A DNA stretch of 64,000 bases from an uncultured Pseudomonadales bacterium (lineage in GTDB: Bacteria; Patescibacteriota; Microgenomatia; UBA1400; Chazhemtobacteraceae). The notes beneath the pieces were generated by a model. That model was not told the origin of the DNA and ran no database searches. It saw only the letters and a list, made by a program, of their open reading frames with translations. Shown one piece after another: positions 12,917 to 60,784 of the stretch (position 1 is its first letter; the number at the start of each line of letters is the position of its first letter). The position numbers were made by a program, and so were the translations under genes. The stretch lies in contig CAZUBK010000003.1 in the NCBI GenBank assembly GCA_964618725.1, positions 10,236 to 74,235 on the forward strand, read 5' to 3'.

Positions 12917-14272
12917 GTGACCAAGAATCATCCTGCCGGAATCTTGACCCATATCAGCTTAATTATTATCTTGATTGCCATCACCATAATAGGTGGCCTC
13001 GACTGGTTAGCTCTACTTGGTAATCTCGGTCAGTTCTTTACCGGCCATATTACTTTAGTAGCTGACGGATCACTTGAGTCATTCAATAATATCATCCTAA
13101 ACGGTATTGGCCTCATTCTTATCATCTATATGGTTGCCACTGCTTCGGGCATTCTCATCTCTTCTCGCCTCGAAGCCAAGTCTTACGATCACCAAGCACT
13201 CGACGCAATTCTATCCGACGGCTCTCACCGCCTTTTCAAAGGTGTTTTACTCGAGGAACTCCTCGCCCGTTACCTTTTTCTCGGGCTGATCGCCCCTATC
13301 TTCCATAGCTCCGCCATAACCATCTTCCTCATCCTAATTGGCAACTCCCTTTTTGCCGCCGTCCATTTGTTCAATTACAAAGACAAGAAGGAAAGAAACT
13401 TAAGTTTAGTCGCTTCTCAGTTTCTCTCCGGCTTACTCCTTTCCTATATCTTCCTCCGCTACGGACTAGTCATCACTTTCATCATCCACTTTTTCTTCGA
13501 TGTTCTCCTTATGAGCACGCTCAAGAAACAGCCGCTTGACCGCCGACATTTCAATCTTCTCGCCTACAATCTTGCCGGCCTGCTCTTGACCATTGCCATT
13601 CTAGTGATCACGGGGACCAAGATCGCCTCTCTACCTGCGGTGTTTACCGCCATTCTGGAAACAGGCACTACCACTCTCACCTTTCCAACCATTCTTCTTC
13701 TCATCTTGGGAAGCAACTTCCTGCTTGGAGCAGCTTCAAAACTCCTCCTCTTCGACTATGGCTTGGGGAAACCTGCAAGTATCAGTAAATCTTTCGCCTT
13801 CTATACCCTCATCATCTTTAGCTTCGGTATCTTTGGCGCCCTGCAGCTTCTAGGCAGTCTTTCCCTCATCCTTTCGATTCTCCTCACCGTTCCGGCGCTA
13901 CTATTCGTCGGTATCAGCGCCACATACCTAATGAAGATTGATAGCGACATTCTTGGCAACGGCTACATGGCCATTCTCTTGACTATAGTTCTCTCCGGAA
14001 TTAGCTATCTCGCTTCACTGTATGTCCCCTCACTCCCCCTTCAGGCAGCACTTGTTGGCATCATCTATACTAGCCTCAGTTACTCAATTAGTGGCTCCGA
14101 GCTAGCCAGTGACTGGCTTATTGGTCTACCAACCTTCTTCCTCGCCCTCGTCGCCTACAATACCTTCGGCTTCTGGTCCATGGCATTACTCTTGATGTGC
14201 TACCTTACTATCAATATTATCCCCAAACACATCAAAGATGCGGCACCAAAGCCTTTACTCACTACCTCTTAA
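12917..14272 (+). CDS. CPBP family intramembrane metalloprotease (CAAX protease-like), extended multi-TM form
   Basis: EELLARY (EExxxR), FAAVH (FxxxH) and HFFFD motifs. More than 10 TM segments. Confidence 0.6.
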   Translation: MTKNHPAGILTHISLIIILIAITIIGGLDWLALLGNLGQFFTGHITLVADGSLESFNNIILNGIGLILIIYMVATASGILISSRLEAKSYDHQALDAILSDGSHRLFKGVLLEELLARYLFLGLIAPIFHSSAITIFLILIGNSLFAAVHLFNYKDKKERNLSLVASQFLSGLLLSYIFLRYGLVITFIIHFFFDVLLMSTLKKQPLDRRHFNLLAYNLAGLLLTIAILVITGTKIASLPAVFTAILETGTTTLTFPTILLLILGSNFLLGAASKLLLFDYGLGKPASISKSFAFYTLIIFSFGIFGALQLLGSLSLILSILLTVPALLFVGISATYLMKIDSDILGNGYMAILLTIVLSGISYLASLYVPSLPLQAALVGIIYTSLSYSISGSELASDWLIGLPTFFLALVAYNTFGFWSMALLLMCYLTINIIPKHIKDAAPKPLLTTS

Positions 14273-22222: not shown

Positions 22223-23560
22223 TTACTCACCCCAATAAGGACGAACATCAAAACCGTTTATTTCTCCACCCCCGTACTTTTCTCGATACGCCATAAATCT
22301 TTTCAGACAATCTAGTACCGACTGACTGTCTTCCAATGCAGGCTGCCTATCCGTCAATGTTATCGAGATCCAAAGACGCACCGATGCCGGCTTCTCCATC
22401 GAGTTACCTAAAACAGTCCCTTCAGGTAAATCAGGAATCTCAAGATGTGCTTGAGGAATTAAGTAAAGCCTCTCATTGCTGACATTCTTTATCTTTACAT
22501 CCACTCTCTTACCATTTGCAATTACCGCCGTGTAATCCAGGGTATCCTTATCCTCTCGATTTACATAATACTGATTATCCCCCGAATGGGGTTGACCATT
22601 TACCAACACCCATCCTCCCTTTCTGTATGCCCTATACGCCACCTTCCCCGTAACCGTCGCAAAGCCACAATACCCCCCAAGTCTCACCACATGACGCGAC
22701 GAATCAAATCCCGGCAAACCAAAGTCGGGGTTCTCACTCAGGTGTCCCTCTTCTTGACTGTAATCACCGTTTTGAACTACCTCTGCCAACTTCACCGCCT
22801 CCAAAAAAGAAAACGTCTCTCCCTGGCCAAAGCCAGTCAGAGCACTTTTTCTAAATACGTCAAGCCCAAGTAACATGTTATACACCTTACTGTCATAGAC
22901 CGTCCTCTCAAGTCCACTCCCATAATGCTCCTCAAGTCCTTGATACTTTTCTAAGTCTTTACCCAGAGGCGTGGCCAGCCACTCCAGCTCATTAGAATTG
23001 GGATAAAACCTCGCAACATGGGCCAACCATCTCGAGGGATCTCCCGTCATATTTGGAATGTATCCCTTAAAAACATAATAGGCCTCGCTACTAACCGTCT
23101 CAGGCACAAAATCTGCCTCAATGTTCGTTATATCAAACCGGATATTTGATAGAGGAACTGTCTCTATCGAAAACTCTTTTGCCTCAAACCAAGCCCTTCC
23201 GTTCCACCCATAGCGAATTACTTCGACCAAAGTGTTACGACTAACAAACGACAATCCATCCATTTTTTCTCTTAGGGCCTCAACATTTCTCTCTACCTCT
23301 TCTTCTGATAACGGAGTTCCCGTCTCTGTTGGCCTTAGTGTCGCGGTTAGAGTCTCTGGTGGCACAATCGTCTCCGTTTCTACTGGGACCTGAGTCGCCG
23401 TTGACGCCATTGTCGGCACAAGCTCAGGAGTCGGTATTACGTTAGGCGTCTCTCCCATCCTCGGGATCTCATCCTCTTTCCTTCCACACGCTACCAGGGT
23501 AACCCCACCCATCACCAACCCGATCCGATACAAAGCTTCTCTTCTGTTCATGCAATTCAT
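22223..23560 (-). CDS. Hypothetical secreted lipoprotein (445 aa; probable start at internal MNRREALY)
   Basis: NRREALY...LVAC|G Tat-like signal plus lipobox. No catalytic motif recognised. Confidence 0.45.
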   Translation of the reverse strand: MNCMNRREALYRIGLVMGGVTLVACGRKEDEIPRMGETPNVIPTPELVPTMASTATQVPVETETIVPPETLTATLRPTETGTPLSEEEVERNVEALREKMDGLSFVSRNTLVEVIRYGWNGRAWFEAKEFSIETVPLSNIRFDITNIEADFVPETVSSEAYYVFKGYIPNMTGDPSRWLAHVARFYPNSNELEWLATPLGKDLEKYQGLEEHYGSGLERTVYDSKVYNMLLGLDVFRKSALTGFGQGETFSFLEAVKLAEVVQNGDYSQEEGHLSENPDFGLPGFDSSRHVVRLGGYCGFATVTGKVAYRAYRKGGWVLVNGQPHSGDNQYYVNREDKDTLDYTAVIANGKRVDVKIKNVSNERLYLIPQAHLEIPDLPEGTVLGNSMEKPASVRLWISITLTDRQPALEDSQSVLDCLKRFMAYREKYGGGEINGFDVRPYWGE

Positions 23561-34360: not shown

Positions 34361-36061
34361 CTACATTGTCCTCACTTCCTCTACCGACGTCACTTCATTC
34401 AAACTTTTATCATCCCTAAACCTGACTAATCGAGGGAACCTCAATGCCACTCCGCCACTATGAATCGGCGATCGGGTTATCTCATCCGCCGCTATCTCCA
34501 CCACCAATCCGGGATCAACCCAAACATCTGGGTATAGATTCTTGTCTACTACGTACTCTTTCGGCCTAGTGGTACGTATTAACCTGTCCAACCTCTTCTT
34601 CATTTCCCTAAACTGCTCATCTGACAATCCCGTCCCTATCTTGGCAATTGTGACTACTTCATCTCCCCTTCTCACTCCCACCAGGAAAGCACCCAAACCA
34701 AAGATAGATCGCTTACCTCTGCCAGCATAATAGCCCATCACTACACAATCCAAAGTATCCGAAAGTTTTGCTTTCGCTTCTTCTACTTCCTTCATCTTCA
34801 CCCACCTCCAGCCCGTTCTCCCCGGTACGTATTTGCTTCCTAACATTTTCACCACCACTCCTTCTAGTCCTTGTTTCAATAATTCACGATGCGTCTTCTC
34901 AATTTTTTCCGCCTCATCAGTCGTCCAGTAATCATCGACCACTAACAGTCTTTTGTCCTTTATCGTTTCTTTTAAAATCCTCCGCCTTTCTTCATAGGTC
35001 TTGTCAATCAAACTCTTGCCGTTCTTGTACATCACATCAAAAACAAAGAACTTTAATGGCACCTTTTCCGCTTGTTCACCTATCCCATGTTTTCTTTTTC
35101 TGGTAATTGTCATCTGAAAAGACAACATTTTCTTGGTTGTAGGATCAAATCCAACTGCTTCACTGTCCAACACCAGTTCGTCTGCTGATACATCCTCTCC
35201 CATTTTTGCCAACTCGGGAAACATGTGACTTACTTCTTCTAAGTTTCTCGTAAAAACTCTGACAAAACCTTTCCCTCCCCTCCTAAAATGAATCTGAGCC
35301 CTAAGCCCGTCAAACTTCGGCTCCACTGCCACCTCGCCCATTTTCTTCACCATCTCTTTTGGCGACTTAAGTCTTTGGCACAACATCGGGCTAATCGGTA
35401 TCCCTAGTGTCGCCTCAATCTCTACCATCGCCCGTTCAATCCCTTTTTTCTTGATATCCTCTACCAACTGTCCAATATCTGGCTTAATTTGGTAAGCCAG
35501 CTCCAGTTGATCCTTCAGACTCTTGTCTCCCCTTTCCATCACTGATATGGCATCTAAAATCGTCTTGTCCGAAAAGCCCAATCTTAGTTTTCCCATTACA
35601 ATCCTCACCACATACCGGGCTGACAATGACTCCATCTTCTGAATTAATCTCGCCAAACCTTCTATCTTTCTTTCTTGAGAACCCGCCCCCTCATCCCCCG
35701 CTATCTCCATTAATCGCCGATATACTCCACTTACATCACCCTCACCCCTTTCCGATGGCTGCATTTCACTTAGTTTCTCCGCCACCACTCCTAAGTCACC
35801 CAACTGTTTGTATAGTTTCCCCACCCTCTCTTCCGTAACTACAAAGCCACTTGCCAACGACTTCTGCACTTGTTTTTCTGCTAGATTAAACTGCACCCTG
35901 GCAAACGACGGCCCCAGTTGACCTAAAGAGAGATAGATAAGTGGTTTCACCTCTGACTCATCCACGTTCTTCAGTAGATTGGCCAATATCTCCGTCATCG
36001 TGTTTCTCGACGCCGTGTTTTCCAACTCTCTAAATATCTCCGCTAACTCTATGAATTTCAC
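34361..36061 (-). CDS. ATP-dependent DNA ligase
   Basis: EPKFDGLRAQIH (KxDG adenylation motif I). N-terminal DNA-binding domain plus adenylation/OB domain layout. Confidence 0.8.
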   Translation of the reverse strand: MKFIELAEIFRELENTASRNTMTEILANLLKNVDESEVKPLIYLSLGQLGPSFARVQFNLAEKQVQKSLASGFVVTEERVGKLYKQLGDLGVVAEKLSEMQPSERGEGDVSGVYRRLMEIAGDEGAGSQERKIEGLARLIQKMESLSARYVVRIVMGKLRLGFSDKTILDAISVMERGDKSLKDQLELAYQIKPDIGQLVEDIKKKGIERAMVEIEATLGIPISPMLCQRLKSPKEMVKKMGEVAVEPKFDGLRAQIHFRRGGKGFVRVFTRNLEEVSHMFPELAKMGEDVSADELVLDSEAVGFDPTTKKMLSFQMTITRKRKHGIGEQAEKVPLKFFVFDVMYKNGKSLIDKTYEERRRILKETIKDKRLLVVDDYWTTDEAEKIEKTHRELLKQGLEGVVVKMLGSKYVPGRTGWRWVKMKEVEEAKAKLSDTLDCVVMGYYAGRGKRSIFGLGAFLVGVRRGDEVVTIAKIGTGLSDEQFREMKKRLDRLIRTTRPKEYVVDKNLYPDVWVDPGLVVEIAADEITRSPIHSGGVALRFPRLVRFRDDKSLNEVTSVEEVRTM

Positions 36062-43065: not shown

Positions 43066-44028
43066 CTATTTAAACACTTCTTCCACGTCCTCTTCCCACT
43101 TGTCTTTTGGCAACCTCTTTATCAAACTCTTAAACTGTAACTCCTCAAATAACGTCAGAACTTTCTCTCGATCATAATCACTTAAGCGACAGTTCTTCCA
43201 ATCTAACTTTATCGGCGCCCAACAATCTATCGTCGCCAATTTCTTACTTAAAAAGGCCTTTTCCTCTCCCTCCTCGAGTAGCTTTGTCACCCTTTCTCCC
43301 ATCACCTTCACTATCTCTTCTCTCTGATTTTTCAACACCTTATACATCTTCTCCACCGACTCCCATGCCTGGAGCAATTTGGTCGCCGTCTTAGGTCCCA
43401 CCCCCTTTATGCCCGGGATATTATCGCTACTATCTCCCATCAATGCCTTTAACTCAATGATTTGTCTGGGAGTAAGACCGTATTTCGCTTTGACCGCTTC
43501 TTCATCATATTCCTGACTCCCTCTGTCTTTTCCATATTTCCCCGGCGCTGGCGGCATCCATACTACTACTTTCTTGTCATCAACTAGCTGCAGTGCATCT
43601 CGATCTCCCGTCGCAATTACAATCTGGAATCCATCTTTAGTTTCAGCCTGCGTTGCCAATGTCCCAATCAAGTCATCGGCCTCAAATCCCTCTTTGCCAA
43701 ACTGAGGTATATTCAAGGCATCTACCACTTCATGAGTTCTCTCAATCTGAGATAGCAGCGCCTCATCCGGTTTTTCTCGGTTCGCCTTGTACTGCTCATA
43801 CTCAAAGTGTCTGAAAGTCGGTGCACCTACATCCCAAGTCACTATGACATGTGTTGGCTGTAGCTTCTCCAGAATCGTGAATAGAATGGCGGTGAATCCA
43901 TAAACTGCATTCACTATCTCCCCACTTTTTGTCGACAGACTCAGCGGATATGCATGATATGCCCGATGTAGAATCGACATACCATCTACCAATACGAGTT
44001 TCCTTTTCACCATCATTCTATTCTTCAT
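43066..44028 (-). CDS. Stand-alone 5'-3' exonuclease (Pol I N-terminal domain / FEN-like)
   Basis: LVLVDGMSILHRAYHA N-terminus. Acidic metal-binding clusters and helix-hairpin-helix region. 320 aa. Confidence 0.75.
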   Translation of the reverse strand: MKNRMMVKRKLVLVDGMSILHRAYHAYPLSLSTKSGEIVNAVYGFTAILFTILEKLQPTHVIVTWDVGAPTFRHFEYEQYKANREKPDEALLSQIERTHEVVDALNIPQFGKEGFEADDLIGTLATQAETKDGFQIVIATGDRDALQLVDDKKVVVWMPPAPGKYGKDRGSQEYDEEAVKAKYGLTPRQIIELKALMGDSSDNIPGIKGVGPKTATKLLQAWESVEKMYKVLKNQREEIVKVMGERVTKLLEEGEEKAFLSKKLATIDCWAPIKLDWKNCRLSDYDREKVLTLFEELQFKSLIKRLPKDKWEEDVEEVFK

Positions 44029-47000
44029 CAGTACTTACCTTTTTCTTCTTCATTATCTTTTCAAACTCATCTGCCTCGACTGTCTCATGATCAAGTAGTG
44101 CCTCAGCTAGTTTGTCTACCACTATCCTATTTGCCTTCAATACAATCATTGCTTTTTTACTTGCCGTCTCAACCAGCTCTTTTACTTCTAGATCGATCTT
44201 GCTTTTTAGCCCCTCTGAAATCTGCACTGGCTCCATATATGATCGTCCCCAATCATTCATCTCCCACATCGGCCCCATCGCCATTGGTCCAAGGCCAGAC
44301 ATCCCCAGATCCATTACCATACTCCTAGCAATCCTCGTCGCCTTCTCAATATCACTAGAGGCTCCTGCCGTTAGTTCTTTAAAGATCAATTGCTCTGCCG
44401 CCCGTCCCCCCATCATCATCGCCAATTGGTCGAGCAATTCCGACTTAGTCTGTTGGTATTTGTCTCGATCCGGCAATGCCAACGTCTGACCCAAGCTCTG
44501 TAACCGACTGACAATACTTACCCGATGTACCGGATCTGCCCCTGGCAACATATGCCCTACCACTGCGTGTCCCGCCTCATGATATGCCGTCATCTTTCGC
44601 TCTAAAGGCGACTGTAGTCTCTTCTTTTCCGGTCCCAGCTTTACTTTCGTCGCCGCCTCCTCCAAATCCTTCATCTCTATTTTCTTCCGTGCATATCTTG
44701 CCGTCAAAATAGCTGCCTCATTAAGCATGTTCTCCAAATCTGCTCCCGAAAAACCTACCGTTCTCCTCGCCACCTTGTCCCAATTAATTCCGTCCAAAAA
44801 AGGTTTGTTTTTGGCATGAATTGCCAAGATATCCTTCCTTCCCTCGATATCCGGCATGTCTAATGAGATTCGTCGATCAAATCTTCCCGGACGAATCAAG
44901 GCTGGATCCAATAACTCCGGCCTATTTGTCGCCGCCAACACAATCACATTATCATTGGGCAAGAATCCATCCATCTCGACCAAGATCTGATTCAACGTCT
45001 GTTCTCTTTCGTCATGACCCCCCATTCCTCCTCCCATTCCTCTCATCCGCCCAATCGCGTCTAATTCGTCTATAAAGATGATCGATGGTGCTGCTTTTTT
45101 TGCCGTCAAAAATAGGTCCCTGGTTCTACTTGCTCCCACCCCTACCAACATCTCCATAAACTCACTCCCCGCCATGCTGAAAAACGGCACTCCAGCCTCT
45201 CCGGCCACAGCCTTCGCCAAGAGAGTATTGTGATTAACGAAACCGTTTCCGACAAATGAATGCGTTCCAGGTACCGTAAAATCATAGACCCTTGCTTGAG
45301 ATTTTGTTACCTTTTTCACTTTATCCAGAAAAATACCTGAGTTCACGATCAGTTCCAGATATGCGTAATCTTCGTTCAGCGATATGGCCGGATCAACCTT
45401 CAGACACGAATGAAGAAATAATCTGACCGATTGCATATTTGGTGATCTTTCTCCTGTAACATACCTACAGATTTGCTTGTGGAAGCTATCACCAACGTAC
45501 TTTGAAGGTTTTTTACCGGATTCGACCAGGTATCGCCAAATTCTCTTTATCCTCGCTCCTTGGTAGTAAACCAAGTCTACATTGGTTCTTAGCTTTACAC
45601 TTCCTATGTATCTTGTCAGTCTATCTTGCTTCCTTTTTAATCTAAATCCAATTTGTTGCGAAAACCTTATCAAATTCGTGCCTGAAATCAGAATCATATA
45701 CGCCGTCGAGAACTGGTTCATTCCCTTCACTCGAAACTTATGCATTACCCCCAAATTCAAAAGGAGAGCACTAACCTGTCTTGCCATTTTTTCGCTGGTT
45801 GTTGTATATTCAACCTTCCCAGTTTTGTATACCGACCCATCCGTATCGAACAATCCCTGTAAAAAAGCAACTATGTTTTCTTTCGGAGACATCATTACGT
45901 AATCTGGAACTTTTTTATGTCTTGCATATACCTCTTCCATCCCGTAATTAACCATTTTCGACTTTATCACTGAAGAAGTGACCAAATAATCATATTTTCT
46001 ACTCTTGGTTTTTTTCACCTTGTATCCGAACTCCTCTTGAAAGTAATTTTGGAAACTCAAAAGCAACTGTCTATCCGCCGTCGAGAAATAGATTCTATCT
46101 TTAATGGTAAGTCCCCCATCTCCTGCCAAAAGTCCCAAAAGATAACTCGTCTTTGAATCAAGCAATTTGTAGCTCCCAAACATTTGATCGCCGGTCTTAA
46201 TCACAACAGAATCACCCTTTTTTATTTCCTCTATTTTTTTGAATTTCAGTCGTCCATCCTTATCCATCACTACCAACGGATGTTCAAAAGTTCCTTCGAT
46301 CCTATGCCCCATATCGGTTTGGATCTTGATAGTATCTGAAATTCCCAAGTCATACCAGTGTGATGCACTAGCAACCGTTTGAACTGGATTCTCAGGATCA
46401 AAAGAGGCAAGAGAAGCTCCATGAACATAACCGCTATCCTCGACCGCGAAGTATTTTGGTATATCCTTGATTTCCATTAAGCCCTTGTTTGTTAATACTA
46501 AAGAGTCCCCAGTAATACACTTTCCCACACCCGCCGGACCAATAAGGAGCACTCCCTTGGGTGTCCTCGCTCCCACCGCTTTGTACTTCTTCGGATTCTT
46601 CAGAAAATCTACCACTTCTTCCAGTTCTTTCTTCGCCTCATCTACCCCCGCCACATCTTTGAAAGTCACATTTTGTTTACCCTTGGCAAATAGCTTGGCT
46701 CTGCTTTTGCCAAAACCAAAGATACTTTCCTGTGCTCCCCGTGCTGATCGAGTCATAAACCAAAGAATAAAAGCAAATGCCACAATTGGTAAGACATTGA
46801 CTAATACTCCCGATATCAACTTACCCACCGCCTGAGATCCCACCTTCACCGGCACTCTATCTGCCGCAATTCCTTCTCGCTGCAAGATCTCCACAAAACT
46901 ACTCCCTTCCTCTTTCCTCGATATCTTTATATCTTCTTCACCATAGGTCAGCAAAATTTCGTCTCCCTGTAGTTCTACTTGTTTGACTTTACCATCCTTA

Positions 47001-47185
47001 ATGTCCGACATTGCCTGTGATATATCTATATTAGGCAGTAGTGATGCTGGATCCAGGAAACTGAGCAAAAACGGAACAAACATCAATAAGATCAGTAACC
47101 AGATTGCTACCTTTTTCAGATTGAAATTCATTTTGACTTCAATTTTCTTTATCGGTTTCTGTTCTACTTTCTCTTCGCTAGCCAT
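44018..47185 (-). CDS. ftsH: ATP-dependent zinc metalloprotease FtsH, interrupted by an intein in the Walker A motif
   Basis: N-terminal TM segments. The AAA domain is split as GPAGVGK|C...HN|TLLAKAVAGE, and the exteins rejoin to give GPAGVGKTLLAKA. SRH region. HEAGH zinc motif. C-terminal helical domain. Confidence 0.85.
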   Translation of the reverse strand: MASEEKVEQKPIKKIEVKMNFNLKKVAIWLLILLMFVPFLLSFLDPASLLPNIDISQAMSDIKDGKVKQVELQGDEILLTYGEEDIKISRKEEGSSFVEILQREGIAADRVPVKVGSQAVGKLISGVLVNVLPIVAFAFILWFMTRSARGAQESIFGFGKSRAKLFAKGKQNVTFKDVAGVDEAKKELEEVVDFLKNPKKYKAVGARTPKGVLLIGPAGVGKCITGDSLVLTNKGLMEIKDIPKYFAVEDSGYVHGASLASFDPENPVQTVASASHWYDLGISDTIKIQTDMGHRIEGTFEHPLVVMDKDGRLKFKKIEEIKKGDSVVIKTGDQMFGSYKLLDSKTSYLLGLLAGDGGLTIKDRIYFSTADRQLLLSFQNYFQEEFGYKVKKTKSRKYDYLVTSSVIKSKMVNYGMEEVYARHKKVPDYVMMSPKENIVAFLQGLFDTDGSVYKTGKVEYTTTSEKMARQVSALLLNLGVMHKFRVKGMNQFSTAYMILISGTNLIRFSQQIGFRLKRKQDRLTRYIGSVKLRTNVDLVYYQGARIKRIWRYLVESGKKPSKYVGDSFHKQICRYVTGERSPNMQSVRLFLHSCLKVDPAISLNEDYAYLELIVNSGIFLDKVKKVTKSQARVYDFTVPGTHSFVGNGFVNHNTLLAKAVAGEAGVPFFSMAGSEFMEMLVGVGASRTRDLFLTAKKAAPSIIFIDELDAIGRMRGMGGGMGGHDEREQTLNQILVEMDGFLPNDNVIVLAATNRPELLDPALIRPGRFDRRISLDMPDIEGRKDILAIHAKNKPFLDGINWDKVARRTVGFSGADLENMLNEAAILTARYARKKIEMKDLEEAATKVKLGPEKKRLQSPLERKMTAYHEAGHAVVGHMLPGADPVHRVSIVSRLQSLGQTLALPDRDKYQQTKSELLDQLAMMMGGRAAEQLIFKELTAGASSDIEKATRIARSMVMDLGMSGLGPMAMGPMWEMNDWGRSYMEPVQISEGLKSKIDLEVKELVETASKKAMIVLKANRIVVDKLAEALLDHETVEADEFEKIMKKKKVSTDEE
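45227..46519 (-). mobile_element. Intein (431 aa) with LAGLIDADG homing-endonuclease domain inside ftsH
   Basis: Begins with Cys (residue 223) directly after the P-loop Lys. Ends ...VNHN followed by +1 Thr. Two LAGLIDADG motifs (LLGLLAGDGG, FLQGLFDTDGS). Coordinates derived by codon counting from the start at 47185. Confidence 0.75.
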
Positions 47186-47248: not shown

Positions 47249-47599
47249 TCAGTCTACTTCTTCAAGATCTGGCTCTAAATTTGAAACATAGAGCCATATA
47301 CATTCATCATCGTACGATACATATACCCACCACATATCCAGTACCATTTCCCAAATCAGCAAAAATCTCTCGCCACACAATTCATCAAGAGGATCTCTAT
47401 CTTTGAAATCCAGTACCGAGAATGAGCTGGCAGCTATATCAACTTCTTCAAATTTGGCTTCAATAAGCTCCTCTAGTTCAATTATTTTAAGTGGTAGACC
47501 TCTAATGTCCTGTGCGACTTGTTCAAGCGCTACTGCAATTGAACCAACTGGAAAATAACACTTTGTTATCTCTTCTAGAAGTTCTTGATATCTGGACAA
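47249..47599 (-). CDS. Hypothetical acidic protein (116 aa)
   Basis: ORF with a strong terminator immediately downstream (47214..47241). Confidence 0.35.
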   Translation of the reverse strand: MSRYQELLEEITKCYFPVGSIAVALEQVAQDIRGLPLKIIELEELIEAKFEEVDIAASSFSVLDFKDRDPLDELCGERFLLIWEMVLDMWWVYVSYDDECIWLYVSNLEPDLEEVD

Positions 47600-47619
47600 C
47601 TTAAGACTCCTTTTTCTAT

Positions 47620-48240
47620 GTGCATTTCAGACTCACCAGCATTATAAGTTTCGTTACGAGAAAAAACAATAGCAATATCCTTACATCTTTTGTTAACATT
47701 CACCTTGTTATGCCACGAATCATCGTCGCTTCCACTAATCCCATTAAAATCGCCACCACCAAATTAGGCTTTAAAAAAATGTTTCCCAATCTTAATTTCA
47801 AAATCGAGGGGATCTCAGCTCCTTCTGGAGTTCCTGATCAACCAATGGGCGAAAGACAAACCCGTATTGGCGCCATCAATCGAGCCAAGAATGCTTTCAA
47901 TCTGATTCCTCATGCTCATTTCTGGGTCGGCATCGAGGGTGGTATGAAAGAAGTGAAAAATAAAATGGAAACCTTCGCTTGGATAGCCGTCAAATCCAAA
48001 AAAGGAAAGATCAGCAAAAGCCGTACTGGCTCCTTTTACGTCCCTGCCAAAGTAGCTGATCTTGTCAAACAAGGCAAAGAGCTTGGCGAGGCCGATGACA
48101 TTGTCTTTGGACTCAGAAACTCCAAACAAAGCAACGGAGCCATCGGTATTCTCACCAACAACGTCCTCACCCGCGCCAGCTTTTATGAGATTGCCATTAT
48201 CACCGCCCTAATCCCCTTCAAAAATCCCCATTTATACTAG
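47620..48240 (+). CDS. Non-canonical purine NTP phosphatase, YjjX/DUF84 family (likely start at 47710)
   Basis: MPRIIVASTNPIKI... and FWVGIEGG match the YjjX pattern (xTNP.K ... FWV.IE.G). Confidence 0.55.
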   Translation: MHFRLTSIISFVTRKNNSNILTSFVNIHLVMPRIIVASTNPIKIATTKLGFKKMFPNLNFKIEGISAPSGVPDQPMGERQTRIGAINRAKNAFNLIPHAHFWVGIEGGMKEVKNKMETFAWIAVKSKKGKISKSRTGSFYVPAKVADLVKQGKELGEADDIVFGLRNSKQSNGAIGILTNNVLTRASFYEIAIITALIPFKNPHLY

Positions 48241-53926: not shown

Positions 53927-56278
53927 TTACATTTCGCCCCTTGCCTCTATCTCTGCCTCTACTTCTTCCCTATCTCGTCCATACTTAAGCCTTGATAGTT
54001 CTTTAATCATTCTTCTTACTTCATCACTTCCTGACGCATTTTCTTTTTTAAGATCTCTCCAAGTACTCATCGAAAACGGCGGAACCGGCGTCCCGGCCAC
54101 AATCGTCTTAGCATAAGCCGTTTGGGCCGGAATATTGGTCAAGTCAGCCTCATTAAACACCGGGCCAAATTCCGGTGCCATAATATTTGCATCTTGCACT
54201 CCCATGCGATACACCACCATCGTACCGACGTTGCCAAATATCGCGTTCCTGACTTCTTCATCAATTTGACTTACAAACTGGTTCGCCACAACTAGTCCTA
54301 ATCCGTACTTACGAGCCTCAGATAATATCTGGGCAAAGTCCGGCGTGGCAAAGTTTTGAAACTCATCAACATAGAAGAAGAATGGGTGTCTTTCTGACTT
54401 GGACATATCTTGTCGTGAAAGTGCTGCTGACAGTATCTTTGGCACAATCACGTTACCCAAAAAGTTGCTGTCCTCTTCACCAACCAATCCTTTGGCTAGT
54501 TTAAGTAACACAATTTTCTTCTCATCCATCAATTTTCTAAAGTTAAGTACTGACTTGCTCTGACCAATAATATTCCTTATCAACTTATTTGTGATGAATT
54601 TCCCAAACTTAGACGCGATATAGTCAAGTGTTTCCGATTTGTGAAAGTCCGATGTCTGAGCAATCTGTTCCGTCCAATATCGCTTCACAATCGGATCTTT
54701 GATTTTGGGTAGCAGGTCCTGTACCATTTTGCTATTTTGCAGGATCCGAGACACTTCAATGAAGGTTGCCCCCGGAATCACTGCCGCCGTCAACATCGCA
54801 TTTCGAATCGAGTGCTCAAAGCGAGGCCCGATGATTCCCGTTTTATGAGGATCATATAGTTTATACATCAGGTTAATGATCGACGAAGCCACCATATGCA
54901 TCTCGTCTTCATGTCTTACCTCAAGTAGGTTGAAACCCATCGGCCTCTCCTGATCCGCCGGATCAAACAACACCACATCCTCCGCTCTCTCTGGTGGAAT
55001 TAACCTGAGCAGTTCTTCAATACCGTCTCCGTGTGGCTCCATGAAACAAACTCCATGCCCCGCCCGGATATCCTGCAAAAGCATCGATTTAAGAGTCTCT
55101 GTCTTTCCGGTTCCCGTTCGACCTAGGATGTACATATGCTTCATCCTGTCCTCAGAACCAATGTAAATCGGTCTCTCCTGCCCCCGGTAGATACTCTTCC
55201 CCAAATACAATCCCGATGTTGGTAGTCCCCCCGTTGCCGGAGCAAACTTAGCCACCAACCAATGAATGTGAGGCGTGTCTACCGTCTTATTAGGCAAATG
55301 CCATACCGCCGCCAACTCATCGGCCGACAAAATCGAGTTATAACCAAACATCGACTGGTATCGATAAATGAAGTCAACCATGAAGCCCTTCTTCCATCGA
55401 ATCGTTCTCCCCGATAAATTGTTCAAACTCGAGTTGAACTGGGCAAAAGCACTCTTAAGGTTACTCAAGTTTCCTTTAGCTTGGCCCTCCGTCGGCGCTA
55501 CTGACAAAAGCCTAATCGCCGTCAAGAAGCCTGGCTTTCCCGTTTTGCTGTCAATCGCTGCCATATCCTCGGGAGACATCTTAAACTTTGCTTTTTCCGG
55601 ATTTGCTTCATCTTTCTTGGTTGTAGATAGAAATACTGATCCTGCCTTACTCCATGCTGACTCTGCCGGTGTCACGATCATTTGTATTATCATCGCCTCA
55701 CCCTCGCCCAATTTGGCCAATGACGCCGTAATCGAGCTCAAAGGGTCCACTGGCATATCCTTATATGGCTTCAATGGATAGAAATTCTTCTTTTTCAAAG
55801 CCAGTTCCGCAAAAGCGACCTTACCGTCCTTGCTAAAAACATTTGGCTCCTCCACTATTTTCACCTCGGCTCCTGAATATGCACCAGCCAAGAGCTTCTC
55901 CACCAACTCCGCATTGTTCCGATGGCAACTGACATAGAACCTGATATCTTCTTTCTTCGCCACAATCTCCAAACTAATATGCTGTTGCGCTCTAAATCTC
56001 TGCCAAAACCCCCCTTTCTTAATTGAATAAAGCGAGTTAAACACCTGCTCCATCGAATCAATCTTCACCTCATTATCTCGTGGAACTGCAATCTGCATTG
56101 TCACAAAGTTAAGCGAGACTTCTTCCCTGTTCCTAAACTTTATCCATTGCAGGAAAACAAATCCCAGTCCCACCATGATTAATATCAACACAGCCAAGAT
56201 TCCCACCGCCAACAATACCAACTCCACCATCTGGTTCAAATTACTTAATGTGGTGCCAACCAATTCTGTTCCCTGCAT
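53927..56278 (-). CDS. Membrane-anchored P-loop ATPase of the VirD4/TraG/TrwB type IV coupling-protein family (long N-terminal domain)
   Basis: N-terminal TM hairpin. Walker A GRTGTGKT. C-terminal VDEF...ARKYGLGLVVANQFVSQI...NVGTMVVYR closely resembles the TrwB/TraG-D C-terminal signature (DEL...GRKRGIRLVLAVQSIAQL...THVVFR). Confidence 0.6.
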   Translation of the reverse strand: MQGTELVGTTLSNLNQMVELVLLAVGILAVLILIMVGLGFVFLQWIKFRNREEVSLNFVTMQIAVPRDNEVKIDSMEQVFNSLYSIKKGGFWQRFRAQQHISLEIVAKKEDIRFYVSCHRNNAELVEKLLAGAYSGAEVKIVEEPNVFSKDGKVAFAELALKKKNFYPLKPYKDMPVDPLSSITASLAKLGEGEAMIIQMIVTPAESAWSKAGSVFLSTTKKDEANPEKAKFKMSPEDMAAIDSKTGKPGFLTAIRLLSVAPTEGQAKGNLSNLKSAFAQFNSSLNNLSGRTIRWKKGFMVDFIYRYQSMFGYNSILSADELAAVWHLPNKTVDTPHIHWLVAKFAPATGGLPTSGLYLGKSIYRGQERPIYIGSEDRMKHMYILGRTGTGKTETLKSMLLQDIRAGHGVCFMEPHGDGIEELLRLIPPERAEDVVLFDPADQERPMGFNLLEVRHEDEMHMVASSIINLMYKLYDPHKTGIIGPRFEHSIRNAMLTAAVIPGATFIEVSRILQNSKMVQDLLPKIKDPIVKRYWTEQIAQTSDFHKSETLDYIASKFGKFITNKLIRNIIGQSKSVLNFRKLMDEKKIVLLKLAKGLVGEEDSNFLGNVIVPKILSAALSRQDMSKSERHPFFFYVDEFQNFATPDFAQILSEARKYGLGLVVANQFVSQIDEEVRNAIFGNVGTMVVYRMGVQDANIMAPEFGPVFNEADLTNIPAQTAYAKTIVAGTPVPPFSMSTWRDLKKENASGSDEVRRMIKELSRLKYGRDREEVEAEIEARGEM

Positions 56279-58432: not shown

Positions 58433-60784
58433 TTACTTATTTCCACTTCCCTCACTGTAATCAATATCACATGCTCCCGCCACGCAGGCCAACTCTTGAG
58501 CCGCTTTGGTATAGTCTTCTTCCTCATAGCGATAAAGCTTAGAGAAATCGATCGCTGGAAACTCGGCTGCTTTGATCTCATATTCTTCCCGAGTTATTTC
58601 TTGATACGGCATCTGGGCATAGGACGCATCAAAGGCGGGCAAAAAGGCCATCCCGCCAATTAAATCCTTATGTTTCCAAACCCAATCAATTAGTTCAATC
58701 ACTTCATCGGGGTGATAGGTAATCGTCACACTCGGATTATGTTCCGTCCAATGAAGCTTGTTCTGTAGCCAATACTCACACTGCTCTACCACATTCCGCT
58801 GTTTCCGCGTAATCGCCCCTTCCGGTGACTTAACCGGAAAATGAATCACCCAAGTTGTCGCTGTTTCTATCATCTGTCCGTTTTCTGGATCCATCGGCAC
58901 ACCAGCGTCTTTCAACACTTTGTATATCGGTGTATGCGCCGATACCCGGATATTCCGAATGTAATAAGGGGCCCAGCGAGCATGGATTCCTGAAGAACAA
59001 TCAAACAACTGCGATGAGTTCCCCGATGGCTTCACACACGTCACCGCCGCAGATTGATTAATCTTGAGCTTCTCCGCCGTAATTCTATTCGTCTCTATCG
59101 CCACCTGACGTAGTCGATTCTGCACACTTGCCTCTTGCGCCACCAAACTGTCTAGCTGCCCATTAATATCTACACCCAACAATCTCTCTTCTTCACAGTT
59201 CTTCTTCCAAATCGGCCTAAGCCCAGCAAAGTTGGTCGCTAGTGATTGAACTGTGCCAATGATTGAGGCCAACTCCACCTTTTCTTTAAGAGTTTCATAG
59301 GTATCCTCTTTTCTCGCTATCGCCACCGACAAATTGCAAAACTGATATGACCGTAAAATTATCTCGCCACACGGATTTGTCCCATAATCTTTTTCTTTTC
59401 TTCTCGCAGGCCGCATTGCAATCGCCCCCTCTCGATTAAAGATTCCTGGTTCTCCTCTTCCTGACTCCACCATCTGAAGCATCTGTTGAGCTACCTCCAG
59501 CTGGGTCAACCCCCGTGATGGCCAGACCGCCGAGTTGTTAGCGTTCCATCTCTGTGAATTATCCCGCTCGAAGTCTCCACTCTTACTATCTCTCATCTCT
59601 CTATCATCAAAATCAAAAAGCGAAATCATTGCCGTTCGTCTCATTCCACCCGATACCGCAGCGTTACCCACCTCACACATCAGGTCATGTGCATCAATTG
59701 GTCTAAAAAAGCTGCCTTGTTTACTCAAAATTCTCATCCTGGCAAACTCGAGCATCTTTCTCAGCGGCTCTGGTCCAGATGATCTCCCCCCTTTCACCTT
59801 TAAGATCGCCCCTGCCGGCCGAAGAAGCGAATAATCAAACAAGATGTCTCCTCCATCAAACCAAGTCTCAAGGCCCGTCTTAATCGCTTCCGCCCATCCT
59901 TCTGTTGTATCCTCTATTATCAGCGTCCTGGCCATATTTCCCCTTTGACGCTTAATTCTTGGTAGTGCTTCCACATATTTTCCTTCCACCGAAAAACCCA
60001 CTCCACAACCATTCATTGAGATCACTAATGCCTCAACAAACGAATCAATGCTGTCAACCGGCAGATAAGAACAATTGTAAATCGAGATGTTGTTTCGTCT
60101 CGCTGCTGCTCCTGCCATTGCCAGAAGTCTCATTGAAGGCGCCACTTTCATCTCAAGTATACCCTGACGAATCCTTCTAAAGGTCTCACCAGGCAACTTC
60201 CCATCCGTCAGTTCCTTAAGGTAGTCTACCGACCGATCCACCGTCTCCATCCATGTTTCTCGTCGCCCTAAATCATAGTTAAATCGCGAGTATTTATCAA
60301 AAAACTGAAACTTTTGAATCTGATTAGCAAAGTACTGATCTGACTCTGCAAAAGCCTCAGTCACCTCTACTGGAATCGGTCGGATACCTCGAAGCTTTGA
60401 ATGCTCTGCCCGGTACAGAATATAGTGCTTGGCTGCTTCAAACTCGCCAGCCACTTGGAGTACCACCTCAACAATGTCCTGAACCTCTTCCACGCTCGGT
60501 TGCTCATATTTTGCCCCTATTACACTAACTGCGTTTCTCGTTAGCTCTTCAACCGCAGTTCTAGGTATCCTTTTGATGTCTTCAAAACAAAGTCTGATTG
60601 CTCTCTCAATTTTCCCTATTTCAAAGTCAACTATACTTCCGTCTCGTTTCATGATTCGCTTCGGTATTCTGATCTCAACTCCTTGATCCAATATCCGATC
60701 TCTCCCTTCAGCTACTCCATTTTTTTTCGGCCGTCCCCGACGAACCACTGCTTTGCTAACTCCCTCCAGTAATAAATCAGACAT
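58433..60784 (-). CDS. Ribonucleotide reductase catalytic subunit with N-terminal ATP-cone (class II NrdJ-like; class I NrdA not excluded)
   Basis: ATP-cone (VEIRIPKRIMKRDGSIVDFEIGKIERAI). NPCGEI active-site loop. C-terminal CVAGAC redox pair. No nrdB in the window. Confidence 0.8.
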   Translation of the reverse strand: MSDLLLEGVSKAVVRRGRPKKNGVAEGRDRILDQGVEIRIPKRIMKRDGSIVDFEIGKIERAIRLCFEDIKRIPRTAVEELTRNAVSVIGAKYEQPSVEEVQDIVEVVLQVAGEFEAAKHYILYRAEHSKLRGIRPIPVEVTEAFAESDQYFANQIQKFQFFDKYSRFNYDLGRRETWMETVDRSVDYLKELTDGKLPGETFRRIRQGILEMKVAPSMRLLAMAGAAARRNNISIYNCSYLPVDSIDSFVEALVISMNGCGVGFSVEGKYVEALPRIKRQRGNMARTLIIEDTTEGWAEAIKTGLETWFDGGDILFDYSLLRPAGAILKVKGGRSSGPEPLRKMLEFARMRILSKQGSFFRPIDAHDLMCEVGNAAVSGGMRRTAMISLFDFDDREMRDSKSGDFERDNSQRWNANNSAVWPSRGLTQLEVAQQMLQMVESGRGEPGIFNREGAIAMRPARRKEKDYGTNPCGEIILRSYQFCNLSVAIARKEDTYETLKEKVELASIIGTVQSLATNFAGLRPIWKKNCEEERLLGVDINGQLDSLVAQEASVQNRLRQVAIETNRITAEKLKINQSAAVTCVKPSGNSSQLFDCSSGIHARWAPYYIRNIRVSAHTPIYKVLKDAGVPMDPENGQMIETATTWVIHFPVKSPEGAITRKQRNVVEQCEYWLQNKLHWTEHNPSVTITYHPDEVIELIDWVWKHKDLIGGMAFLPAFDASYAQMPYQEITREEYEIKAAEFPAIDFSKLYRYEEEDYTKAAQELACVAGACDIDYSEGSGNK

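Follow-up and report, generated by a model that had tools for sequence, protein, structure and literature searches.

A probable class 1 LAGLIDADG intein in the P-loop of FtsH from a Microgenomates (CPR) bacterium

Classic P-loop inteins, among them TerL1-a, archaeal MCM-a, RFC-a and bacterial DnaB-b, are inserted in the Walker A motif of their hosts (PMC5050341; main text of PMC4760082). Mycobacteriophage TerL1-a lies between an invariant Lys and the nucleophilic Thr (PMC5050341), so that its +1 residue doubles as a P-loop residue. The RadA intein of Pyrococcus horikoshii is likewise a P-loop intein, and the ATPase activity of its host is abolished until splicing has occurred (PMC6195587). Archaeal LonB, given as an intein host in Table 2 of the Novikova 2016 survey (PMC4760082), is an AAA+ protease and P-loop NTPase.

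The intein described here occupies the same Walker A position as the classic P-loop inteins but differs from them in its host, the membrane AAA+ protease FtsH, which is absent as an intein host from the main text of both surveys (PMC5050341; Novikova 2016, PMC4760082), and in its lineage, the CPR/Patescibacteria, which those texts barely sample. Compared with LonB, the present host belongs to another protease family and comes from another domain of life. The RadA intein is weakly similar over the splicing domain (4e2u, E = 0.008), but is archaeal, resides in a recombinase and, with a solved chain of only 168 aa, is too short to hold an endonuclease domain. The papers examined in which FtsH and inteins co-occur (PMC6892783, PMC2997540, PMC8528832, PMC517821) concern inteins hosted by PolB, RPB2, Mu F and RNR, and none of them describes one in FtsH. 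Literature searches found no paper for 'zinc metalloprotease FtsH' together with intein, and nothing relevant on inteins of Patescibacteria or the Candidate Phyla Radiation.

The interrupted ftsH gene and its splicing regions

As a rule FtsH is an essential quality-control protease encoded by a single gene copy. By similarity, the genome from which the window comes was placed in the Microgenomates, as Collierbacteria/Woesebacteria-like. In the window (the whole 64 kb stretch of DNA that was analysed), the ftsH precursor is read as one continuous open reading frame without a stop codon or frameshift, and not as two separate genes (Table 1). The protein scores 694.9 bits against the NCBIfam FtsH equivalog (TIGR01241, FtsH_fam; cut-off 600), placing it within the FtsH family, and its exteins match the Pfam domains FtsH_ext, AAA, AAA_lid_3 and Peptidase_M41. 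The N-extein comprises the N-terminal transmembrane/extracellular part of FtsH and runs into the AAA domain as far as the Walker A sequence GPAGVGK. The first residue of the C-extein (+1) is the Walker A Thr, and is followed by Walker B, the SRH, the AAA lid and the M41 protease with its HEXXH motif (HEAGH).

Table 1. Features of the interrupted ftsH gene (positions in the window)
Feature	Position	Strand	Basis or remarks
ftsH precursor ORF	44018..47185	minus	1055 codons + stop: N-extein, intein, C-extein
N-extein, aa 1-222	46520..47185	minus	Pfam; colinear with intein-free orthologues
Intein, 431 aa, class 1, with predicted LAGLIDADG endonuclease	45227..46519	minus	Pfam, NCBIfam, AlphaFold model
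N-terminal splicing region, intein 1-112	46184..46519	minus	block A Cys1, block B Thr77-x-x-His80; TIGR01445
LAGLIDADG endonuclease core, double-motif, intein 113-300	45620..46183	minus	Pfam LAGLIDADG_3, two stretches; model
LAGLIDADG motif 1, LLGLLAGDGG, intein 127-136, catalytic Asp134	46112..46141	minus	G129, G133, D134, G135 invariant
LAGLIDADG motif 2, LQGLFDTDG, intein 220-228, catalytic Asp227	45836..45862	minus	L223, F224, D225, D227 invariant
Helical region, intein 301-395, endonuclease core to block F	45335..45619	minus	model helices 295-393
C-terminal splicing region, intein 396-431	45227..45334	minus	block F VYDFTVPGTHSF, block G NGFVNHN; TIGR01443
C-extein, aa 654-1055 + stop	44018..45226	minus	Pfam, NCBIfam

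The insert occupies protein residues 223-653, between the Walker A Lys and Thr, with junctions GPAGVGK/CITGDS...GFVNHN/TLLAKA (slashes mark the insertion points). This is the classic P-loop Lys/Thr arrangement as defined in PMC5050341. The Cys1 codon lies at 46517-46519 and the terminal Asn codon at 45227-45229. The extent, exact position and terminal residues (Cys1, C-terminal HN, +1 Thr) given by the initial annotation were thereby confirmed to the base. As expected of a class 1 intein, the insert is in-frame within a conserved host, and its removal restores colinearity: the resulting 624-aa FtsH aligns without a gap at the junction to the intein-free orthologues P0078 and P0079 (76–78% identity, the range also seen against Microgenomates FtsH). 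Splicing would accordingly regenerate GPAGVGKT, as had been predicted.

The profile signal of the insert is far above chance (Pfam Intein_splicing, E = 3.5e-15; TIGR01445, intein_Nterm, 27.4 against a cut-off of 24.5, aa 223-306; TIGR01443, intein_Cterm, 31.6 against a cut-off of 15.6, aa 633-654), and blocks A, B, F and G, the absence of which would have spoken against an intein, are all present and conserved. Among the aligned relatives, Cys1 of block A and T77, H80 and P81 of block B are at least 90% conserved; a point on the other side is that block B reads T77-F-E-H80 in the window intein and T-P-E-H in most relatives. Blocks F and G (VYDFTVPGTHSF ... NGFVNH430N431/T) provide the penultimate His, the terminal Asn and the +1 Thr; D413 is invariant, and H420, H430 and N431 are at least 90% conserved. 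The conserved columns across 25–41 relatives are C1, T77/H80, G..GDG, GLFD.DG, VYD.TVPGTHSF and NGFVNHN. As a nucleophile, the +1 Thr falls short of Cys and Ser, which counts against splicing, although the +1 residue is Thr or Ser throughout the family.

Class 3 inteins lack a nucleophile at residue 1 and use a Cys in block F instead. Membership of this class (WCT type) was ruled out, since Cys1 is present and the presumed nucleophile position of block F is Asp413 (VYD413F), not Cys. The WCT triplet marks class 3 inteins such as those of mycobacterial PhoH and DnaBi1, and the mycobacterial PhoH inteins, being class 3 mini-inteins (PMC6195587), are therefore not of the type found here.

By the standard class 1 pathway, Cys1 would carry out an N-S acyl shift, and the +1 Thr, also the Mg-coordinating Thr of Walker A, would attack the thioester. 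Cyclisation of Asn431, helped by His430, would release the intein, and an O-N shift would restore GPAGVGKTLLAKA and hence an ordinary 624-aa FtsH. Before these steps the precursor would be a single 1055-aa polypeptide with a split ATP-binding loop, and should therefore be inactive as an ATPase.

The endonuclease core and its predicted fold

Both LAGLIDADG motifs reported by the initial annotation were found, at intein residues 127–136 and 220–228, within two stretches matching Pfam LAGLIDADG_3 (E = 3.5e-24). All 25 aligned relatives retain their catalytic residues, Asp134 and Asp227. An AlphaFold (AF2) model of the intein (pLDDT 91.1, pTM 0.91) places residues 122–289 in the pseudo-dimeric alpha-beta-beta-alpha-beta-beta-alpha fold of LAGLIDADG endonucleases. 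In Foldseek searches the core matched I-DmoI and I-Tsp061I (target-normalised TM 0.65–0.75; I-DmoI about 0.7). The model also has the HINT fold, matching mini-inteins (Ssp DnaB, 6frh; Mxe GyrA, 1am2) as well as full inteins.

The best structural matches to the whole model were the TliVMA intein (7qss; E = 3e-28, TM 0.72) and PI-PfuI (1dq3; E = 9e-26), with 2cw7 and PI-SceI also among the best, and PI-PfuI was recovered in a PDB sequence search with the insert (E = 3.6e-12). TliVMA/PhoVMA (7qss, 7qst) and PI-PfuI resemble the window intein in that a double-motif LAGLIDADG endonuclease interrupts their HINT splicing domain. They differ in being archaeal, in their hosts (V-ATPase subunit A or ribonucleotide reductase) and in sequence, with an identity of only 18–24%; the global rmsd of 5–7 Å indicates differences in domain arrangement and in the accessory region as well. 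The helices that link the endonuclease core to block F probably form an accessory DNA-binding or linker domain, and this region contains the only non-catalytic cysteines of the intein (C351 and C372).

Taken as a whole, the locus is best read as a class 1 intein with a double-motif LAGLIDADG homing endonuclease at the classic P-loop Lys/Thr site of a Microgenomates (CPR) ftsH gene, with a probability of about 0.85. Sequence, model and selection together suggest that the intein is probably competent for both splicing and homing. Once freed, it would probably act as a site-specific endonuclease, cutting intein-free ftsH alleles within a target of some 20–40 bp encoding IGP[AS]GVGK/TLLAKAVA, and repair templated by the intein-bearing copy would then spread the element.

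Empty alleles and divergence of the intein

Intein-free ftsH alleles of relatives, the natural candidates for the homing site, were found at two loci (L001 and L003), both colinear with the spliced window FtsH across the insertion site. They encode LLIGPSGVGK/TLLAKAVAGE and share 37–38 of 48 nt with the reconstructed site of the window. The 48-bp candidate target of L001 is ATTGGTCCATCGGGTGTTGGTAAG/ACGTTATTGGCCAAGGCAGTAGCT. L001 also has the same gene order as the window, ftsH followed by a 5′-3′ exonuclease gene. The exteins of the intein-bearing relative L002 are closer to the intein-free L001 (84–87% identity) than to the window (76–78%), and the empty alleles are nested among carriers. Apart from P0077, which is identical to the window protein, only one (P0082) of about 119 other FtsH orthologues listed has an insert at this site. 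Such sporadic presence and absence among close relatives is the distribution expected of a homing cycle. One further orthologue, P0080 (893 aa), resembles a carrier in length but is a tandem-AAA FtsH.

Selection was assessed by comparing the window with L002. Synonymous differences are saturated in intein and extein alike (pS about 0.8), so pN was compared with that of the extein in place of dN/dS. The insert is under strong purifying constraint, with pN lower in the intein (0.115) than in the extein (0.173). Within the intein, constraint is strongest in the endonuclease core (pN 0.086, 85% amino acid identity) and conservation weakest in the helical region (pN 0.159, 73%).

At the nucleotide level, intein and extein are 74% and 68% identical to those of L002, and no 1293-bp tile of the window is lower in GC than the intein (0.393; mean 0.445, sd 0.02). 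A recent invasion, which these values might suggest, was rejected as the main account because inteins and exteins diverge in step from carrier to carrier (Spearman 0.79, 15 non-independent pairs). This correlation makes the FtsH intein clade look old and largely co-inherited.

Long residence, to which the saturated synonymous sites between the two closest carriers also point, would also suit an intein that still splices but whose endonuclease is inactive in homing, a fixed vertical resident kept because imprecise loss would destroy the essential Walker A loop. The constraint on the endonuclease could stem from a cause other than present-day homing. A dead endonuclease should, however, decay or shrink towards a mini-intein, whereas here both catalytic Asp residues are invariant and the LAGLIDADG core is the best preserved part of the element. 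The nested empty sites, and the low GC kept by the intein in two hosts of different GC, also argue against inactivity, which is considered unlikely. The initial annotation's view that endonuclease activity is probably retained thus gains indirect support from the invariant Asp pair, the constrained core and the predicted similarity in fold to active intein endonucleases.

Distribution, relatives and possible roles in the host

The census was taken from an exhaustive search; a word-indexed search, which overlooked both the 80%-identical P0082 and the protein of the window itself, gives lower bounds. At least 10 FtsH-hosted clusters carry an intein at the Walker A site, including one from a complete Woesebacteria genome, and the same-site intein is present in at least six GTDB species representatives (among them the complete Woesebacteria CP011214.1). 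The nine best cluster representatives among 1.84 billion proteins were all FtsH-hosted. The initial annotation had regarded an FtsH P-loop intein as uncatalogued, and this agrees with the searched literature but needs qualifying, because public sequence data already contain many such alleles, unannotated. Automated annotation leaves intein-bearing ftsH genes unnamed, or as 'hypothetical' or 'AAA family ATPase, partial'. The window intein exemplifies, in a host protein not yet catalogued, a phenomenon that is well described and was to be expected; its mechanism is not new. With it, FtsH joins the intein hosts as site "FtsH-a", offering a well-conserved, Thr+1-dependent intein of about 430 aa that is also a predicted meganuclease, together with a 48-bp candidate target that is already defined.

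In these lineages inteins occupy FtsH at three or more sites (Walker A GK/T, GVGA/SRVRDLF and sensor-1 AA/TNRPD), and some alleles carry two of them.

An intein within the ATP-binding loop means that each active FtsH molecule must first splice itself, making this a clean natural test of the choice between a purely selfish and a regulatory role for P-loop inteins. Co-option as a conditional-splicing switch for FtsH, responding to redox, metals or temperature, would add to the selfish-element account without replacing it. Precedents have been proposed (the mycobacterial DnaB and RecA inteins and the Pyrococcus RadA intein), the P-loop DnaB intein splices conditionally (PMC6195587), and selective retention of P-loop inteins is argued for in PMC4760082. 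The necessarily inactive precursor and the occurrence of inteins at three FtsH sites would also fit. Patchy presence among close relatives speaks against an indispensable regulatory role, however, and the two non-catalytic cysteines lie in the poorly conserved helical region, away from the splice site; a switch is rated as quite improbable. It is similarly doubtful, though slightly less so, that FtsH of the CPR/Patescibacteria is an unrecognised multi-site intein hotspot, in which the P-loop intein is retained as a post-translational on-switch of an essential protease in reduced-genome, episymbiotic bacteria. A non-functional insert, produced by chimeric assembly or lying in a disrupted ftsH pseudogene that does not splice while a functional second copy exists elsewhere, might be supposed for a metagenome-assembled contig of which 64 kb is visible, leaving room for such a copy, but is effectively refuted by the same architecture in more than 10 independent assemblies, and is opposed by an in-phase insert with all catalytic residues intact, strongly constrained exteins with intact Walker A, Walker B and HEAGH motifs, and the gene order common to the window and the intein-free L001.

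The FtsH-hosted inteins form one clade within the very large "classic" P-loop Lys/Thr intein superfamily, whose hosts include PhoH, RuvB, CobA, UvrD, MutS and phage terminases. The inteins group by host gene, and every aligned relative hosted by PhoH, RuvB, CobA or ABC proteins is inserted at GK/[TS]. The window element belongs to this FtsH-specific allelic clade, one branch of a superfamily that has probably passed on a few occasions from one P-loop gene to another, non-homologous one with a similar Walker A coding sequence. That a single LAGLIDADG intein lineage jumped between at least five such genes by way of the shared coding sequence is a speculative addition, secondary to the hotspot and on-switch proposal.

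The nearest relatives hosted outside AAA+ proteins are the P-loop LAGLIDADG inteins of PhoH (Acidobacteria, Pyrinomonadaceae and others). They resemble the window intein in architecture, length (about 430 aa) and junction (GxxGTGK/C...NGFVNHN/T), with 30–37% identity over the full length, but form a separate clade, and their host gene lies in a phoH-ybeY-corC operon. Their target DNA has only 28 of 48 nt in common with the window site. Viral contigs also carry full-length relatives (23–34% identity), in the Walker A loops of terminase-like proteins and helicases.

The FtsH precursor and its intein

The ftsH precursor is encoded by a single uninterrupted open reading frame. Its Walker A sequence GPAGVGK (aa 216–222) is followed directly by the intein Cys (aa 223, codon 46517–46519), and the insert closes with …GFVNHN at aa 653 (Asn codon 45227–45229), after which the host protein resumes as TLLAKAVAGEA. 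Pfam recognised FtsH_ext, AAA, AAA_lid_3 and Peptidase_M41 in the precursor, the AAA match beginning only past the insert, and Intein_splicing (3.5e-15) and LAGLIDADG_3 (3.5e-24, in two stretches) within it. The curated NCBIfam equivalog for FtsH was passed despite the insert (694.9, cut-off 600), as were both curated splicing-region models, intein_Nterm (aa 223–306) and intein_Cterm (aa 633–654). The initial annotation had placed a LAGLIDADG intein in the FtsH P-loop, and translation agrees exactly with its position and length. Missing splicing blocks or a frameshift between the halves would have spoken against it; both splicing models pass and the frame is single, so the observation is confirmed and its interpretation supported.

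Coordinates of features in the window
Feature	Position	Strand	Length	Remarks
ftsH precursor	44018..47185	minus	1055 aa	no interruption; by translation
Intein	45227-46519	minus	431 aa	by translation
Extra gene 1	47249-47599	minus	116 aa	no Pfam match
Extra gene 2	47620-48240	plus		NTPase_I-T/DUF84; strand opposite to ftsH
ATP-dependent DNA ligase	34361-36061	minus		archaeal/eukaryotic type (DNA_ligase_A_N/M/C)
Coupling-protein-like ATPase	53927-56278 or 58433-60784	minus	783 aa	TrwB/TraG-type, type IV
Ribonucleotide reductase	the other of this pair	minus	783 aa	ATP-cone; weak matches to barrel domain and B12-dependent RNR insertion domain
Long ORF	323-1972	minus	549 aa	no Pfam match
Long ORF	12917-14272	plus	451 aa	no Pfam match
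Long ORF	22223-23560	minus	445 aa	no Pfam match

Columns conserved in an alignment of 41 full-length relatives, and in a separate 25-row set, coincide with the canonical intein positions: Cys1 (block A), Thr77-x-x-His80 (block B), the LAGLIDADG motifs LLGLLAGD134GG and LQGLFDTD227G, VYD413FTVPGTH420SF (block F) and NGFVNH430N431 (block G). Both catalytic aspartates (Asp134, Asp227) are invariant in the 25-row set. An AlphaFold2 model built from the relatives' alignment was confident (pLDDT 91.1, pTM 0.91), and its closest solved structures are full-length, endonuclease-bearing inteins, led by TliVMA (7qss, E 3e-28, TM 0.72) and including PI-PfuI (1dq3), PI-PkoII (2cw7), PhoVMA (7qst) and PI-SceI. 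The centre of the model resembles I-DmoI and I-Tsp061I, both of them monomeric LAGLIDADG enzymes, and its ends resemble mini-inteins. A sequence search of the PDB, independent of the model, also returned PI-PfuI (3.6e-12) and VMA inteins. The intein is of class 1 rather than class 3, because Cys1 is present and the presumed block F nucleophile position carries Asp, not Cys.

By the standard class 1 pathway, splicing would begin with an N–S shift at Cys1; Thr+1, doubling as the Walker A Thr, would carry out the trans-esterification, and His430-assisted cyclisation of Asn431 and an O–N shift would then restore GPAGVGKT. The precursor is predicted to be inactive, because before splicing its AAA module would be unable to bind ATP normally. 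For the P-loop inteins of RadA and DnaB, the unspliced precursor has been reported or assumed to lack ATPase activity, and conditional splicing has been demonstrated for DnaBi1 (PMC6195587). Once free, the intein would be expected to cut ftsH alleles whose site is empty, using its Asp134/Asp227 metal site.

Intein-free alleles and history of the insertion

The spliced product (624 aa) is a normal FtsH, most closely related to FtsH of Microgenomates (62–78% identity; Collierbacteria and Woesebacteria are among the names matched). Among the 120 best orthologues, a same-site insert was found only in P0082 (1060 aa), besides the window's own protein, which is present as the sequence-identical NCBI entry P0077 on a 154-kb contig; the 893-aa P0080 is a tandem-AAA variant. 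The junction in all four genes compared reads LLIGP[A/S]GVGK↓TLLAKAVAGE (↓, insertion point) without gaps, and the DNA differences, nearly all at third codon positions, leave 37–38 of 48 nt matching the window's reconstructed site. The empty ftsH sites of the two intein-free loci, L001 (encoding P0079) and L003 (encoding P0078), are presumptive homing sites. L001 (GCA_034680565.1) shares with the window the gene order tRNA-binding protein, small hypothetical, ftsH and 5′–3′ exonuclease; in the window, two additional genes (47249–48240) separate ftsH from the small hypothetical and tRNA-binding genes.

Compared with the intein-bearing relative L002, pS and pN were 0.82 and 0.173 for the extein (76% aa identity), 0.79 and 0.115 for the whole intein (80%), and 0.78 and 0.086 for the LAGLIDADG core (85%); no omega can be quoted because synonymous sites are saturated in both intein and extein. 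Constraint on the endonuclease is at least that on the essential AAA+ protease, which fits poorly with an endonuclease in decay. GC content is 0.39–0.40 in the intein and 0.46–0.50 in the host gene in both genomes, and the intein is the lowest-GC 1293-bp tile across the window. The extein of L002 is closer to that of intein-free L001 (84–87%) than to that of the window (76–78%), so at least one intein gain or loss must have occurred inside this small clade. Intein and extein identities correlate over six carriers (Spearman 0.79, 15 non-independent pairs), which argues for a long association of the FtsH intein lineage with Microgenomates ftsH and against a recent arrival. A long-running homing cycle, with persistence by reinvasion among relatives and occasional loss, fits these data.

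Relatives in FtsH and other P-loop hosts

The enrichment of inteins in P-loops is documented, with hosts that include PhoH (21 inteins) and archaeal LonB, and FtsH does not appear in the main text of that survey (Novikova et al. 2016, PMC4760082). Kelley et al. 2016 (PMC5050341) describe the mycobacteriophage TerL1-a intein as separating the invariant P-loop Lys from the nucleophilic Thr. No description of an FtsH intein was found in the searchable literature. The window's intein is real but ordinary in kind: it belongs to a thoroughly known type, and what is new is the protein that hosts it and the place of insertion ('FtsH-a').

Counts from the word-indexed search are lower bounds, as it missed the inteins of both the window's own P0077 and the 80%-identical P0082. 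At least a few of its matches are hosted by FtsH, in Beckwithbacteria, Parcubacteria GW2011 and Patescibacteria MAGs, where the proteins go under 'hypothetical protein' or 'AAA family ATPase, partial'. At least about 55 are hosted by PhoH (30–34% identity, full-length), and others by CobA/BtuR, RuvB, FtsK and ABC proteins; wherever the junctions could be read, the insertion lies at Walker A GK↓[T/S]. Six genomes among the GTDB species representatives, including the complete Woesebacteria GW2011_GWF1_31_35 chromosome (CP011214.1), carry inteins 62–75% identical, at the same FtsH site wherever the junction is on the contig. Searched exhaustively, a set of 1.84 billion cluster representatives contained 10,849 matches with E<=1e-3, of which 401 reached E<=1e-30. 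The top nine non-self representatives are FtsH proteins without exception, inserted at GK↓T (37–64% identity); behind them rank other AAA+ proteins along with UvrD/Rep-type helicases, RecD-like, MutS and terminase-like proteins. One carrier contig (CAYYLO010000019.1), labelled 'uncultured Gammaproteobacteria bacterium', has an FtsH intein 64% and an extein 68% identical to the window's, as is typical for Microgenomates alleles, and is probably mis-binned or wrong in its taxonomic label.

IMG/VR contains no fewer than 394 viral stretches that code for full-length relatives (23–34% identity), mostly at terminase-type (RGxGK↓C…HN↓T/S) and helicase (AGAGSGK↓C) Walker A loops, making phages a plausible reservoir or vector of the P-loop intein superfamily. 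In a neighbour-joining tree the inteins sort according to host, with the FtsH inteins in a single clade split into two sub-clades, one clade each for PhoH and CobA, and RuvB and ABC as singletons. Reconstructed PhoH and RuvB target DNA matches the FtsH site at 28–29 of 48 nt, compared with 37–38 for FtsH alleles. The simplest reading is that inteins moved to a non-allelic site in another P-loop gene on a few ancient occasions, aided by the common GxxGxGK-T-x-L-A coding sequence, and then spread inside each gene.

A second FtsH site was seen in P0095 (1076 aa, an orthologue from a Logan assembly) and P0209; Walker A is intact there, and the site lies about 30 aa farther downstream (extein position 254/255; EMLVGVGA↓S…LLHN↓SRVRDLF). 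It is occupied by a different intein, of about 450 aa, that begins with Ser1. Two inteins occur in each of P0202 (1499 aa) and P0209 (1494 aa): both have the P-loop site, joined in P0209 by GVGA↓SRVRDLF and in P0202 by a third site in the sensor-1 region (…↓TNRPDVLDPA, extein position about 322/323). This brings the intein insertion sites in FtsH of uncultured bacteria to at least three. These sites, the double-intein alleles and the spread of one lineage across many P-loop hosts are more unusual than the window's intein, and all lie outside the window.

Other genes in the window

Three long ORFs had no Pfam match at E<=1e-3. Two unrelated ORFs are each exactly 783 aa; their families are frequent intein hosts, and neither ORF contains an intein. 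The ligase of archaeal/eukaryotic type sits in an apparently bacterial genome.
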